From a virus, in the IMG/VR virus record IMGVR_UViG_3300023313_000004, positions 11,573 to 75,572 of that record: a stretch of DNA of 64,000 nt; one strand, 5' to 3'. The position numbers and the translations under genes are program-made. Below the pieces are notes generated by a model. It did no database searches. It had not been told where the DNA came from and saw only the letters and a program-made list of their open reading frames with translations. How positions within the stretch are numbered: the stretch's first letter is position 1; each line of letters starts with the position of its first letter. Shown piece by piece: positions 25,818 through 60,259 of this stretch.

Positions 25818-26274
25818 TGCCGTTTCCAGTTACTTGGGGATTTAGAGGTATAGATACCGCTGTCTCAAAGCCTACAGTAGTACCTTGGTCGGGTATCATC
25901 ATAACCATAGGTAGGTGGTCATCAGGGAGTGCTAGTTTAGAGAAGGCTACCCAACCAGTATCTGCGGTTGTCTGGGTAGGGTGCCCTGTAGGATGAAAGG
26001 AGGTGTATATACCTAGAGGGTAGTCCGTATCTAAGACCCCCGTAATGCTATTGATAATAAATACCCTGATTCCATTTGCCGCCAAAGAGGCATCTGCATT
26101 GAATACTGTTGCAGTGTAATACCTAATAACAGGCTGTATGACCACCCCAGAAGAAGAGCCTGTAAACGAGCCCAAACTCCCCTGTGCAGTAGCCTGCAAC
26201 CCTCCCGGTATAGTTTGGTTAGCTGCAGCCCAGTTCCCCGCAGTCGATACGTTCCTAGCATACCAAGTAGCCAT
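25810..26274 (-). CDS. Hypothetical virion protein
   Basis: Coupled ORF in the fibre module; beta-rich composition. Confidence 0.55.
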   Translation of the reverse strand: MATWYARNVSTAGNWAAANQTIPGGLQATAQGSLGSFTGSSSGVVIQPVIRYYTATVFNADASLAANGIRVFIINSITGVLDTDYPLGIYTSFHPTGHPTQTTADTGWVAFSKLALPDDHLPMVMMIPDQGTTVGFETAVSIPLNPQVTGNGNG

Positions 26275-27617
26275 TAGTCATACGCCTTATCAGCGGTTAT
26301 TGTCCATACAATAGTACCGTCTGTTACTAAATCACCCACTGCTAGTCCAGTCCATACAGGAGGGGTAAGCCCTGAGACCCCTGCTGTAGTACACACCGCA
26401 TGTTGCCCTGCTGAGGTAGGAGCAACTAAAGTGGCAGGTATGCCCACGGCTGCTACTACACCTGTCATACTAGCTGACCAAAAACCTAGCTGGTATCCTT
26501 TTACGGCGTTGGTGCATATAGTTTCAACGGTACGCATTGTCCACACGACTGCACCATCAGTAACAGTACTCCCCTCTACTAAGTTTAAGGTACCCCATAA
26601 AGGCTCAGACGCGCCTGTTGCACCCCCCGTTGTACATAAAGCAACTAATTTAGCATACTCCGCTGGGTTAATTTGAGCACCCACACCATATACTGCTGCT
26701 TGCCATAAGTTGCCACTGGCTGGGTCGGGCACAACATAAAAATACTCTGCTACATCACCAAAGGCTCTCGTGAATACCACCTCCCCAACACCAGTTGCTG
26801 GAGGCGCAATATTGGGGTCTGCAGAACCAATACCTGCAACGCCAAAGCCTATTAGCCCCACATTACCCGTATGCGCCATAGTCAAAGCATCGTACTCGTA
26901 AACCTTTGTTCCTATAGGTAGGGGCACCCCTTTGGAGTCGTGAAAACGCTCCCTGTTTTCTACGAGAGCCCCTGTAACGGCGGGGGTCTCAGTAGTTATT
27001 AGTATGTATGCTGCCAGTAACCCACCTGCCGCCCAGCCTGTTGTAAACTTAATACCAGAGGATGTGCCGCCATTCCCTACAGCCCTCATTACTAGGTGCC
27101 CACCTACGGGGACGGTCACTGTTTTTGCCGCAGTACCCGTAGTAGCAAAAACACCTGTAGGGTTCACCCAAGAACTAGCAGACCCAACATATGTACCTAA
27201 GGGCACAGATGCCACGCGAGTAGACGCAGTACCTGCACCATTAACTGAGTACGCATCCACAAAGTACTTATGAGAGGCTGAGCGTTTTAGGCTACCCCTA
27301 AATTTATCTACCCTTACTTTAGTGGCTTTCGTATAGGCAGCCCCTAAACAAAAAGAGCCAACGGAGTAGTATGTTGCAGCCCCTGTAGATATACCAGACA
27401 TTAACTGAGTTGTAGAGGCTACAGTCATACCCCCTGCAGCACTGGGAGGGGCAGTAAGCGCAGTGTTTTGTACAGGGGCAAGGATTAAGTGGTCTTTCCA
27501 TGCGGCGTTCTTTGTTACGGCCGTGTTGGCAGGCTTAGCAGCTGCAGCACCCGGAGTAACAAACCCCGGCATTAACGTGGTAGCCGCTGCACCAATAATA
27601 CCAAAATACTTAGACAT
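26274..27617 (-). CDS. Fibre/adhesin-like structural protein
   Basis: Two CTT.G..G...P.W...G..VTDG.VVWT repeats typical of phage fibre proteins. Confidence 0.6.
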   Translation of the reverse strand: MSKYFGIIGAAATTLMPGFVTPGAAAAKPANTAVTKNAAWKDHLILAPVQNTALTAPPSAAGGMTVASTTQLMSGISTGAATYYSVGSFCLGAAYTKATKVRVDKFRGSLKRSASHKYFVDAYSVNGAGTASTRVASVPLGTYVGSASSWVNPTGVFATTGTAAKTVTVPVGGHLVMRAVGNGGTSSGIKFTTGWAAGGLLAAYILITTETPAVTGALVENRERFHDSKGVPLPIGTKVYEYDALTMAHTGNVGLIGFGVAGIGSADPNIAPPATGVGEVVFTRAFGDVAEYFYVVPDPASGNLWQAAVYGVGAQINPAEYAKLVALCTTGGATGASEPLWGTLNLVEGSTVTDGAVVWTMRTVETICTNAVKGYQLGFWSASMTGVVAAVGIPATLVAPTSAGQHAVCTTAGVSGLTPPVWTGLAVGDLVTDGTIVWTITADKAYD

Positions 27618-56603: not shown

Positions 56604-57707
56604 TTAAGTGCATAGATGGGGGGTGCTAGTGTAGTAATCTCTGAGGGCAGAGACACCGTCTTTTTCTCTCGATACTAGGTTACGACAACTACATTTAGGG
56701 CACGACTCTAACTCTTCCATGGTAGCTAGGGACTTCCCTATCTCTGGGTCAGCAGAGAATGTTAGTTTAGGCTTCCAACCAAAATCCCTTTCTAAAGGCA
56801 GGGTACTCATTACTTCACAGACCCTATCTGCCCACAGCAAGGCCTCATCCTCTGGGACGTAGAACTTTAAATCATCATGTACCATCATCATAGGCTTTAG
56901 TACGTCAAAGCTGTACCGCTTCTTTAACTCCCATAGGGATAGCTGGGTTAGGTCAGATAGTGTGCCTTGCACAGGGGCATTGATAGCATTCCTCTCTTGC
57001 TTAGACCTTGTAGCACCATCATAACAGTTAATCATAGGTAGGTTTCTTACCCTACCTAGGGGAGACCGTATATAGCCATGCCTTTTTGCAAAGGCTTTAT
57101 ACCTATCATGCCATGCCACTAGGGCAGGGTACATGGCAAAAAAAGCCTCCCTGTCTGCTGATGCCTCTTGCTCGGATAATACCACCCCATAACTAATCTC
57201 GGCGTAGGCTCTATACCCGTTCACACCCATACCATATAGTAGCCCAAAATTACCTGCTTTAGCCCCCTGCCTCTTGCTCTTAAACCACTTGGGGTCACTG
57301 GATTTCTTCTCCATAAATTTGCCTAAAGGCAACCCTAGTAGCCCTGCAGCGGTGGCGGAGTGAATATCTACGTCATTGTTAAACGCTGCAATCATAGCTG
57401 TCTCATTAGCAATATCTGCAGCCACCCTTAATTCCCCAGCTGCATAATCACAGGATAATATCAGTTTCCCCTCTGGGGCAATATAGGCGGCGCGTAAAGG
57501 CTTAGCCCATGTTGTGTGCTTGGGGATAGTATTATGAACCACCACATCATCTGCCACGAAAGAGTGGCTATTCTTGATGGTTAAGTCATACGTCTCCTCC
57601 GCAGGAATGTGGGAGATGCATTGTATCTTTGCCTCCCTAAAACCTGCGGCTTTGGCTAGGAGGCTATCCTTATTTTCTATTTTGTTATTCATACTAGTGT
57701 ACCCCAT
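56604..57707 (-). CDS. polA: DNA polymerase A C-terminal half, fused to split-intein C-part
   Basis: YDLTI..HSFVADDVVVHN|TIP, then motif A DYAAGELR, motif B RQGAKAGNFGLLYG, motif C VHDD. Confidence 0.92.
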   Translation of the reverse strand: MGYTSMNNKIENKDSLLAKAAGFREAKIQCISHIPAEETYDLTIKNSHSFVADDVVVHNTIPKHTTWAKPLRAAYIAPEGKLILSCDYAAGELRVAADIANETAMIAAFNNDVDIHSATAAGLLGLPLGKFMEKKSSDPKWFKSKRQGAKAGNFGLLYGMGVNGYRAYAEISYGVVLSEQEASADREAFFAMYPALVAWHDRYKAFAKRHGYIRSPLGRVRNLPMINCYDGATRSKQERNAINAPVQGTLSDLTQLSLWELKKRYSFDVLKPMMMVHDDLKFYVPEDEALLWADRVCEVMSTLPLERDFGWKPKLTFSADPEIGKSLATMEELESCPKCSCRNLVSREKDGVSALRDYYTSTPHLCT

Positions 57708-57988
57708 TATTTAATCATCAGGGTGTAATCAGCAGTTATATCTTTTGCTAACACAAACCCTTCTGTAGTTAGGAGGGGGTGGTTTCCTGTGCACTGCACC
57801 TTTTTTCCATCCTCCAGTACAAATTCATACAAGGGCTGCACCCCATTTCTATATACATCCGTGATAGGTTCCCATATCCCTGTGTGGGTAAGCACATCCA
57901 TAGGTAGACCTCCCTCAACATGCTCAACCACATCTAAGAGAGGAACTGCACCTAAATCCGTAGTTACAAGGGTGTGTCCCGGCATACA
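57531..57988 (-). mobile_element. Split intein: IntN 57988-57710 (93 aa), IntC 57707-57531 (up to 59 aa)
   Basis: CMPG..CTGNHP..stop, then a new ORF ending in VHN|T; joined by TAATG. Confidence 0.8.
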
Positions 57989-60259
57989 CTGTAGGGCTGG
58001 GTCTTTACAACTGGTATTATGCACTACTATACCATTAGCAACATAGGAGTGGTCGCCCTCTACAGTTATATCATACGTTTCATGCCGCCCATAGGGTTGT
58101 ACCTTGTGTACCCTCTCAGGCAAGAACCCCACCATGCTACCATCTCGTGACCCCGCTGTTTTATCCCCTAGAAGGGCTGCTCTCAAAGGAGCTAGGGCAT
58201 CATCTGCCGCACAACATAGATTAGACACCCAGTTGCAGCCTTTATCCCCATTTAGATGGTACACCCCTCCCCTAGGGTCTACATCTTCTGGTGCAAAGGT
58301 TTGATATACAAGGTCAGCTACCTTGTACACTTCATACTCCCACGCAGTAGTCCAGAGTAGTACTGTTGTATCCCCTGTTGGGGATATTACTTGGGGCAGT
58401 CCTAGGAAGTGCTTACGAGGGGAGGCTAGGCTCTTCTCTCTTATGATAACCCCTAGGGTAGAGATATAAAAGGGGTGTCCTGCTATAGGGAGCCACTCCT
58501 CTTTTGGTTCTGGGGTAAGGGTATAGGCATAGTCTCCTACCTCTAGGTTCCCTGCCTCTATCCAAGAAGGGGTACTCATTACTGGGTGGTTATGCGTCAC
58601 CACAACCTCTGAAGACCCCACCCCTAATAATAGGGTATCCTTAACACCATTAGTATGTGTCCCTACCATATCCATCCACCTAGCCTTATGCGTCCAAATC
58701 TGGAATGGCTCTCCTTCTTTAAACCTAGATATAAGGGTAGTCACCTCTACCTCCCCCTTGTTGGTAAGTATCTTCGTCCCGGCAATGACGCACCTACCTG
58801 TATCCGTACCCGAATCATCCGCCCCATTATATTCACCCTTATGCAACATATAGCTAGGATGAAACCTGTTATCAGAGCACAGGTGCTTATTAAACCCCAC
58901 AACATAGGTGCTCATAGTTTTACTGGCACTACCATGACGCTTCAATTCTTTAACGAAAGTTACTGCCTTAGGTTCATCCTTAAACATAAGGAAATGGTCT
59001 AGTGCCGTGGAAGGCTGCTTAGTTTTTTCTGTGAAGAGCTTTGGTGTTAGCCCTAGCCCTCTCGCCCCAAAGAAATAGTCCTTTAGTATCGCGGGGCGTA
59101 GGTCTAATTTGGCGGCATGTTTAAGACGTAACTTAACAGGGAATCTCTTAATCATACTCTCTGCTAGCCCCTCTAACTCAGCACATAATGAGCCTTTGAG
59201 CTCAGTTTGGCACTCTGTATCTAAGAGTACCCCCTCTACCTCCATAGCTAAGAAGGTCTCACTGCTTTTATGTAAGAGGCGGACATAAAAACGGGCTAAA
59301 AAAGGGTCGGCTAGTAACTCCGCTTTCAACTCATGGTACACCCTTAGGCAGGCATCTACATCTCCAGCAGAATAAACTAAGAAGTCATCATCAGGGATTA
59401 AATCCATCCGCCCCTTATCATAGGTATTGTTCATATTGGAGTCATACCCCCCCATGGAAGTATAAATCTTCGCATGGGTCTCTAGGCTATTCGACCTGTT
59501 CTCATCTAATAGTGACCCCACTAATGTAGTATCAAATACATAGTTATCGCAGTGGATGCCCCACTTATGGATAATCCAACGCATATCATATTTAAAATTT
59601 GCCCCCACTATTTTTACTCTGGGGTCTGTGAGCAGCCATTGAATCTGGTTCCACACCTCTTGGTGGGGTTGGGGTTGCCCCTCCTCACCTCTAAAGCGCA
59701 TAACACAGCCATACCCCACTCTGTGACTGAATTGAATAGCCTCAATCCATTTGTCATCCCTATAAGGAACTAAACCTATAGTTTCCGTATCACAGGCAAC
59801 AACGACTGCCTCCCCTGTGCGCTCATAGGTAGTAGTTATATCCTGTATTAGGGGCGCAAAGGAGGACACATACTCATAACTCCCTATAGTAGGGGATAAC
59901 GTCCCAGTACTCTCTAGTCGGTGCGCTAGTCTAATATCCCAAGTTACCCTAGATTTTTTAGTGTAGTCTACTGTTATCAGAAAAGGGTCAAAGGTCAGCA
60001 ACCACTGGCTGCCTTCCACTAAGGTAGCGGTCTCCCTAAGGGATTGGATAGCCCTGTTTTTAGGCACTAGACCTAGAGCCTTTAGCTTATCCAATATTTT
60101 GTTCCCCATGGCTAACACCACGCTGCCGCTAGGTATAGGGGGGAGGGGCTGTCCTTCAGTATAACTAAGGTACTCTACCTTTGCGCCACAACTTTTTACG
60201 GTGGGGGTCACATGCTCTCTTACCAAGGAGGCTTTAGCTCCTGTTATTATGTACATCAT
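57707..60259 (-). CDS. polA: DNA polymerase A N-terminal half (UDG-like remnant, 3'-5' exonuclease, intein, IntN)
   Basis: ExoI CDTET, ExoII NFKYD, ExoIII YSAGD, TGR[intein]TSCKDPALQ[IntN]. Confidence 0.92.
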   Translation of the reverse strand: MMYIITGAKASLVREHVTPTVKSCGAKVEYLSYTEGQPLPPIPSGSVVLAMGNKILDKLKALGLVPKNRAIQSLRETATLVEGSQWLLTFDPFLITVDYTKKSRVTWDIRLAHRLESTGTLSPTIGSYEYVSSFAPLIQDITTTYERTGEAVVVACDTETIGLVPYRDDKWIEAIQFSHRVGYGCVMRFRGEEGQPQPHQEVWNQIQWLLTDPRVKIVGANFKYDMRWIIHKWGIHCDNYVFDTTLVGSLLDENRSNSLETHAKIYTSMGGYDSNMNNTYDKGRMDLIPDDDFLVYSAGDVDACLRVYHELKAELLADPFLARFYVRLLHKSSETFLAMEVEGVLLDTECQTELKGSLCAELEGLAESMIKRFPVKLRLKHAAKLDLRPAILKDYFFGARGLGLTPKLFTEKTKQPSTALDHFLMFKDEPKAVTFVKELKRHGSASKTMSTYVVGFNKHLCSDNRFHPSYMLHKGEYNGADDSGTDTGRCVIAGTKILTNKGEVEVTTLISRFKEGEPFQIWTHKARWMDMVGTHTNGVKDTLLLGVGSSEVVVTHNHPVMSTPSWIEAGNLEVGDYAYTLTPEPKEEWLPIAGHPFYISTLGVIIREKSLASPRKHFLGLPQVISPTGDTTVLLWTTAWEYEVYKVADLVYQTFAPEDVDPRGGVYHLNGDKGCNWVSNLCCAADDALAPLRAALLGDKTAGSRDGSMVGFLPERVHKVQPYGRHETYDITVEGDHSYVANGIVVHNTSCKDPALQCMPGHTLVTTDLGAVPLLDVVEHVEGGLPMDVLTHTGIWEPITDVYRNGVQPLYEFVLEDGKKVQCTGNHPLLTTEGFVLAKDITADYTLMIK
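58016..58792 (-). mobile_element. Intein (259 aa) with NUMOD4/HNH-like insert
   Basis: CVIAG..VTHNHP..YDITV..VHN|T; internal EEWLPI..YISTLG and HLNGDKGCNWVSNL. Confidence 0.88.

Follow-up and report, generated by a model that had tools for sequence, protein, structure and literature searches.

Here we analyse a 64,000-nucleotide (nt) stretch of viral DNA (hereafter the window; bases 11573-75572 of the IMG/VR record IMGVR_UViG_3300023313_000004), in which a family-A DNA polymerase is coded by two adjacent genes, both on the minus strand and each carrying one half of an intein. Gene 1 (57707..60259, 850 amino acids (aa)) codes, in this order, for an exonuclease, the N-terminal part of the polymerase, a first, contiguous intein (intein 1), the short segment TSCKDPALQ and the N-terminal half of a second intein (IntN), and then stops with TAA. 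Gene 2 (56604..57692/57707; 367 aa counted from its first ATG) opens with the C-terminal half of this second intein (IntC). As judged by its motifs, the locus is a naturally split class-1 intein with Cys1 and Thr+1. Very probably, the polymerase is produced from two genes that are broken inside a class-1 mini-intein at the endonuclease loop, and trans-splicing would rebuild the enzyme. We also lean, cautiously, towards regarding this locus and two related contigs (L084 and L085) as a documented end-point of a pathway that has so far only been predicted, in which one deletion would turn an intein with an overprinted HNH gene into a split intein and the HNH start signals would pass to the C-half, and as the earliest report of a naturally occurring split-intein pair in a family-A DNA polymerase.

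The signatures of a splicing intein were found in both halves. Gene 1 ends with ...TSCKDPALQ/CMPGHT...CTGNHPLLTTEGFVLAKDITADYTLMIK followed by the stop codon (slashes mark the borders between extein and intein). The nucleophile Cys1 of block A is present, as IntN opens with CMPGHT right after DPALQ, and the TxxH of block B is contained in CTGNHP, which aligns with block B of the DnaE inteins. IntC ends with ...SHSFVADDVVVHN/TIPKH and carries blocks F and G, the penultimate His, the terminal Asn and Thr+1; the Ssp and Npu DnaB mini-inteins align with this end at their own C-termini. On the 155-position Pfam model Intein_splicing, IntN covers the positions 38-92 and IntC 121-155. In the PDB, IntN matched DnaE split inteins by sequence (E 2e-7), and IntC matched DnaB mini-inteins (E 2e-3). 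When the halves were aligned to the contiguous mini-inteins of relatives (160-200 aa), they covered all but the variable linker; this places the break in the loop, between blocks B and F, where endonuclease domains are canonically inserted. With its 93 residues, IntN spans the whole N-lobe and differs in this from the short IntN of atypically split inteins. Nothing is unusual except IntC, which is somewhat long (49-54 aa) and carries no net positive charge. IntN is acidic with 13 D/E versus 5 K/R, and IntC has 8 D/E versus 6 K/R, and L084 shows the same pattern. The pairing of an acidic IntN with a net basic IntC that marks the charge-complementary DnaE type was thus not found.

On the coding strand the junction reads ATG ATT AAA TAA TGGGGTACACTAGT ATG AAT, with IntN ending in ...DYTLMIK. 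The stop codon of gene 1 and the first ATG of gene 2 overlap as TAATG, and two codons ahead of this ATG the frame of gene 2 has a closing TAA. The halves are separate translation units, with a TAA after IntN and a ribosome-binding site and ATG belonging to IntC. No open reading frame (ORF) was found between the intein halves, which are 14 nt apart or overlap by 1 nt, so there is no intervening endonuclease gene. A first-pass annotation, made from the letters of the DNA, had described the two genes with their TAATG overlap, the GGGGT ahead of a second ATG and the VHN/T end, and had proposed a split intein that lacks an endonuclease gene between its halves; all of these sequence statements hold, and its charge counts, including the IntC that is not basic, were reproduced on recount.

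The insertion site between Gln and Thr (site b) is a true intein insertion point as read from the intein-free alleles of relatives. These are uninterrupted and read ...TGRLSATDPAVQTIPKK in L003, where PolA is a single ORF of 813 aa, and ...TGRTSAKDPAVQTIPKH at many loci; L003, L014, L018 and many other relatives show DPAVQTIPKH without an insert. In about 50 distinct relatives an intein is located between the Q and the T. Thr at +1 is the native polymerase residue across the clade and is common to all contiguous relatives. The earlier proposal that Thr+1 would be used and that the DPxLQ-TIP motif would be rebuilt by splicing is supported as well.

When IMG/VR was searched specifically for the junction of IntC and extein, it yielded the contigs L084 (60.8 kb) and L085 (42.5 kb, from a different metagenome), which share the split and are identical over 7,180 nt. 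In L084, gene 1 ends with ...CTGNHPILTTKGFILAKDITKEHTFMVRGTNE and the stop codon, and gene 2 starts with MNSDYEVSKKAGFKESK...VVHN/TIPKH. The two coding regions overlap by 8 nt (ATGAATAG), and GAGGGGG, a strong ribosome-binding site, is located 4 nt upstream of the gene 2 ATG. Gene 2 is offset by +1 in L084 versus +2 in the window, and the junction sequences differ.

For gene 2 of the window two ATGs come into question. Upstream of the first (57707) no purine-rich motif is present, and ahead of the second (57692), 15 nt further downstream, a GGGGT ends at a distance of 9 nt. The pattern GGGG(T), 6-9 nt and ATG recurs ahead of many genes of this phage, for example the portal gene and the gene at 26274..27617, and the start Met of L084 gene 2 (MNS...) aligns with the second Met of the window (MNN...). 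Because of this usage of GGGGT in the phage and the alignment with the L084 start, 57692 is likely to be the start of gene 2. A scan for promoters and terminators gave no more sites than shuffled controls, and none stands out between the two genes. Since no promoter- or terminator-like site separates them, gene 1 and gene 2 are probably co-transcribed.

In the mechanism that we propose, the product of gene 1 would consist of the exonuclease, the N-terminal polymerase part, intein 1, TSCKDPALQ and IntN, and the product of gene 2 of IntC and the rest of the polymerase. Intein 1 would be removed by cis-splicing. IntN and IntC would associate into a complete HINT fold, in which Cys1 would form a thioester, Thr+1 would attack and the terminal Asn would cyclise. 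This would join ...DPALQ to TIPKH... inside the conserved motif TGR...DPxLQ-TIP and result in a polymerase of about 800 aa. Both the trans-splicing activity and the start codon used are predictions from the sequence. Since IntC is not net basic in either of the split lineages, the association of the halves may depart from the electrostatic pattern of the DnaE type. The C-lobes of intein 1 and of the split intein are 39% identical over 44 aa, and with C-lobes that similar a cross-reaction between both inteins is conceivable.

Some observations weigh against trans-splicing as the explanation of the locus, namely the missing net positive charge of IntC, the two possible in-frame ATGs of gene 2 and the fact that only two lineages with a site-b split were found. 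The alternative that survives best is a real frameshift after which the intein no longer splices, which would leave either a pseudogene or a polymerase of two non-covalently associated pieces that the intein halves keep together. It would suit an IntC without the net positive charge of the well-studied DnaE pairs and, according to work cited in PMC2677866, non-covalent pieces are functional in some endonuclease-fractured phage enzymes. We consider it improbable, since Cys1, TxxH, HN and Thr+1 are all retained in both split lineages and purifying selection acts on both intein halves as strongly as on the polymerase. Between the window and L084, the proportion of synonymous differences (pS) is 0.87, i.e. 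saturated, in both halves, and the proportion of nonsynonymous differences (pN) is 0.27 in IntN and 0.26 in IntC, compared to 0.20-0.26 in the extein segments. A pseudogene is unlikely. In addition, about 150 retained intein residues inside the conserved TGR...DPxLQ/TIP motif would probably be disruptive.

A sequencing or assembly error in an intact gene was also considered. The first-pass annotation had itself pointed out that an A could have been lost from the AAA run of a really contiguous mini-intein of about 152 aa; one inserted A would indeed fuse both frames, and the site-b inteins of L004, a closest polymerase relative, and of most other relatives are contiguous. A Logan contig of 389 nt from the probable source run, with a word depth of 132.9, spans 57407-57795 and matches the window with zero differences and zero gaps. 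The Logan evidence consists of independently assembled contigs of the likely source sample and not of raw reads, which excludes an assembler error and does not amount to independent sampling. The loose ends of the contig carry an adapter sequence that we take to be Illumina, and at a depth of about 133 on this platform an error in a 3-base homopolymer is implausible. A second run of the same study (X3) does not cover the junction, which is not evidence of absence. The same split was found in L084 and L085 in two metagenomes with another junction sequence and another frame offset, and neither a shared sequencing error nor a conserved recoding signal can therefore explain both. With the exact match of the Logan contig, the split in L084/L085 and a phage-typical ribosome-binding site and ATG ahead of the C-half, the lost A was rejected as extremely unlikely. 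Programmed ribosomal frameshifting or recoding, followed by cis-splicing of a contiguous precursor, would fit two ORFs that abut or overlap by one base, yet it was rejected and deserves hardly any credence, since the shift would be confined to about 6 nt without a slippery heptamer, the frame of gene 2 is closed upstream of its ATG, the shift needed is -1/+2 in the window versus +1 in L084, hence no conserved recoding signal exists, and both lineages have a ribosome-binding site and ATG for independent initiation.

We return to the naturally split intein and its age. In a tree of 31 site-b inteins, those of the window and L084 form a sister pair (support 100/100) with a long stem within the contiguous inteins, the nearest of which are L120, L088 and L093. 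The identity between window and L084 is 61% in IntN and 57% in IntC. Because the split is common to two well-diverged phages with saturated synonymous sites, it is, on this comparison, ancestral to the window phage and the L084/L085 phage and old. The first-pass annotation had suggested a recently split or atypical intein. The first term does not fit the shared ancestry, and the second is not supported either, as the break between blocks B and F is in the usual loop and Thr+1 is native to the polymerase clade.

Among the site-b inteins recovered, a split was seen in the window and in L084/L085 only. The set consists of 37 IMG/VR loci, about 18 loci of JGI metagenomes and the best 150 of 433 matches among 1.84 billion representative proteins. 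Short database proteins that seemingly start at IntC (P0010, P0003, P0024, P0032 and others) were not counted as split forms; P0003 is probably a truncated gene call, because the same sequence is found inside the contiguous intein of L120. When the region was compared by megablast with 50,697 phage records, no match was obtained, and a tblastn search with IntC and the junction against GenBank phage records gave none either.

The contiguous relatives suggest how the split may have arisen. At least 18 distinct contiguous site-b inteins (270-341 aa) have a dual-coding linker, where frame 0 is open and the +1 frame contains an ORF of 143-218 aa. Six of these +1 ORFs were compared with PHROGs, and all gave matches to HNH endonuclease families (3377 and 374; E 1e-39 to 1e-61). 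A seventh query, the +2-frame ORF of L052 from a different intein subgroup, gave no match, and a Pfam scan of the same nested ORFs found no match in any. Mini-inteins of 160-200 aa have no nested ORF. The HNH start codon is located 20-25 codons past the block-B His and is preceded by a GGGG or GGAG that is formed by frame-0 codons. The HNH start of L088 (G-ATG-AA) and the gene 2 start of L084 (A-ATG-AA) fall on equivalent codons, both in the +1 frame, and their ribosome-binding sites occupy the same place. From about 8 codons ahead of a conserved AGF motif onwards, IntC is again homologous to the contiguous forms. Site b thus occurs in the clade in three states: contiguous with an overprinted HNH gene, as a contiguous mini-intein, and split.

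We propose that the ancestor was a contiguous intein whose linker also coded, in the +1 frame, for an HNH homing endonuclease. A deletion of the HNH body would have joined the HNH initiation region to the part coding for IntC. The leftover HNH ribosome-binding site and ATG would then drive the translation of the C-half, and frame 0 would run straight into a stop. In the window lineage a later gain of about 10 nt would have put the stop ahead of the ribosome-binding site. The lack of an endonuclease gene between the halves would follow in this model from the loss of the HNH body. In our estimation such an HNH-deletion origin is reasonably probable, given the match in position, frame and ribosome-binding site. 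It is weakened by the absence of residual sequence homology, the retained stretch being too short, and by the junction of the window, which is further diverged with about 10 extra nt and a stop that is now upstream of the ribosome-binding site. Out-of-frame endonucleases within inteins were already known from reports of 1998 and 2025-26 (bioRxiv 10.1101/2025.01.02.630785 and, as cited elsewhere, Gorbalenya 1998). The bioRxiv paper (10.1101/2025.01.02.630785) expects such inteins to decay into mini- and split inteins and calls a dedicated search still needed.

The source record is a 75,572-bp IMG/VR virus genome with direct terminal repeats that is rated as 100% complete. Every long ORF of the window lies on the minus strand, and the portal gene comes after the polymerase gene, as it does in relatives. 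The stretch was found in a single public run, a microbial-mat metagenome. The nearest cultured phages are siphophages of Stenotrophomonas and Vibrio with a PolA that is 40-48% identical, where only the extein was matched. The features of the polymerase gene pair, together with the carriers of overprinted ORFs among the relatives, are listed in Table 1.

Table 1. Features of the two polymerase genes in the window and relatives with an overprinted reading frame at site b
Feature	Position	Strand	Basis
N-extein of gene 1: 3'-5' exonuclease domain and N-terminal family-A polymerase up to ...GTDTGR	58793..60259	-	Pfam DNA_pol_A_exo1, E 4.6e-17; aligns with the intein-free 813-aa PolA of L003
Intein 1 (site a, TGR/C...VVHN/T), contiguous, 259 aa, with a NUMOD4/HNH_3-like insert, maybe degenerate	58016..58792	-	Pfam Intein_splicing E 1e-7, HNH_3 E 0.0075; homologous site-a inteins in L004 and P0122
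Micro-extein TSCKDPALQ of 9 residues between both inteins	57989..58015	-	translation; corresponds to LSATDPAVQ or TSAKDPAVQ in intein-free relatives
IntN, 93 aa, Cys1, block B TGNH, C-terminal fusion to gene 1	57710..57988	-	sequence alignments, Pfam
TAA stop of gene 1; last A shared with the first in-frame ATG of gene 2	57707..57709	-	sequence
Spacer of 14 nt, TGGGGTACACTAGT, with Shine-Dalgarno-like GGGGT (57701..57705) for the second ATG	57693..57706	-	sequence; recurrent motif in the phage
IntC, 54 aa from the second ATG (59 aa from 57707), blocks F and G, end VVHN	57531..57692	-	sequence alignments, Pfam
C-extein: Thr+1 (TIPKH...), palm and fingers, motifs A, B and C, Cys-rich C-terminal tail, stop	56604..57530	-	Pfam DNA_pol_A, E 1.6e-48; identity of 40-50% to PolA of Stenotrophomonas and Vibrio siphophages
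Carriers of a +1-frame overprinted ORF: L006, L007, L011, L013, L020, L038, L039, L088, L093, L098, L102, L107, L120, L122, L125, L130, L131, L135	e.g. L038:4046-4519, L120:1824-2498		

The Cys-rich tail of the polymerase (56604-56720, minus strand) reads CPKCSCRNLV...YYTSTPHLCT, with the counterpart CPNCGERNLV...YYTGDKHTCAQ in L084, and may be a zinc-ribbon extension of PolA. Intein 1 is located only 9 residues upstream of the split intein. Its in-frame insert gives a weak Pfam match and has a Tyr at the place where P0122 has the His of HRLV, and it may be degenerate. If active, the endonuclease of intein 1 could co-mobilise both inteins.

Further intein arrangements were observed in the clade. 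L004, which shares with L084 the place of closest polymerase relative found (about 62% identity for each), has a single ORF of 1139 aa (L004:2644-6063), where both inteins are contiguous mini forms and the site-b intein measures 190 aa. The C-half gene of L084 (L084:3456-5513) contains a further intein in polymerase motif B (NFG/C...VSN/CLYGM), which is absent from the window; it holds an out-of-frame HNH ORF (L084:4066-4821) that matched PHROG 374 with E 8e-29.

Naturally split inteins are the main protein-ligation tools, and new pairs with other junction residues or association rules can be used alongside the existing ones. The pair described here combines Cys1/Thr+1, a Gln at -1, a non-basic IntC and adjacent halves that are apparently translationally linked. 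Because of its Cys1/Thr+1 chemistry, the lack of a DnaE-like charge pattern and the adjacent, linked halves, it could serve as an orthogonal splicing tool, if trans-splicing holds true. The site-b states of the clade and the start signals at what would be the former HNH start offer a concrete, testable route from a mobile intein to a split intein. In addition, a phage replicative polymerase may depend on two splicing events, one in cis and one in trans, at sites just 9 residues from each other. That phage replication genes can harbour split inteins is already well known; for a split intein in a family-A polymerase, no earlier report was found in the open-access literature.

Among the known systems that come close to the window are splits at site a (TGR/C) of the same polymerase family, found in L022 (2690-5460), L038 (1809-5451), P0179 and P0015/P0017. 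There the halves are also adjacent, with gaps of 44-52 nt (44 nt in L022, 52 nt in L038) and no endonuclease gene between them. These splits differ from that of the window by an insertion point 9 residues upstream, a 36-aa IntC (MFVKV...) and another intein lineage, and the site-a intein of the window itself is contiguous. L038 combines its site-a split with a contiguous site-b intein. The atypically split inteins (AceL-TerL, VidaL and PolB16 OarG) are broken near the N-terminus with an IntN of about 15-37 aa, in contrast to 93 aa in the window. Inteins with an out-of-frame endonuclease have the same layout as the contiguous relatives of the window, with the HNH gene in the +1 frame of the linker, whereas the split intein of the window has no nested endonuclease gene and would be a predicted relic in which the endonuclease start signals are re-used.

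IntN finds its best sequence matches in the PDB among the Npu and Ssp DnaE split inteins (7qil, 4kl5 and 2keq; E 2e-7 to 7e-5). They share with the window Cys1, the canonical split position, an acidic IntN and the lack of an endonuclease. The DnaE halves are, however, coded at distant loci and have Cys+1 and a basic IntC of about 36 aa, whereas the halves in the window are adjacent, with Thr+1 and an IntC of 49-54 aa with a net charge of -2. Among characterised split inteins, gp41-1, NrdJ-1 and IMPDH-1 have a Ser at +1, in contrast to the Thr+1 of the window.

The fractured genes of Dassa et al. 2009 (gp41-1, gp41-7, gp41-8, NrdJ-1 and IMPDH-1; PMC2677866) are, like the polymerase genes of the window, phage-type genes of replication or nucleotide metabolism that are broken in a mini-intein at the endonuclease loop, with adjacent halves on the same strand. 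The enzyme types treated there are gp41, NrdA, NrdJ, IMPDH, DnaE, DNA ligase, terminase and an unknown protein; PolA is not among them. Most of these loci keep a free-standing endonuclease between the halves, which the window does not, while the gp41-7 locus, like the window, has no intervening endonuclease gene. With respect to the model of Dassa et al. (PMC2677866), the window matches the end state, and the donor of the start signals appears to be different, namely a deleted overprinted HNH gene.

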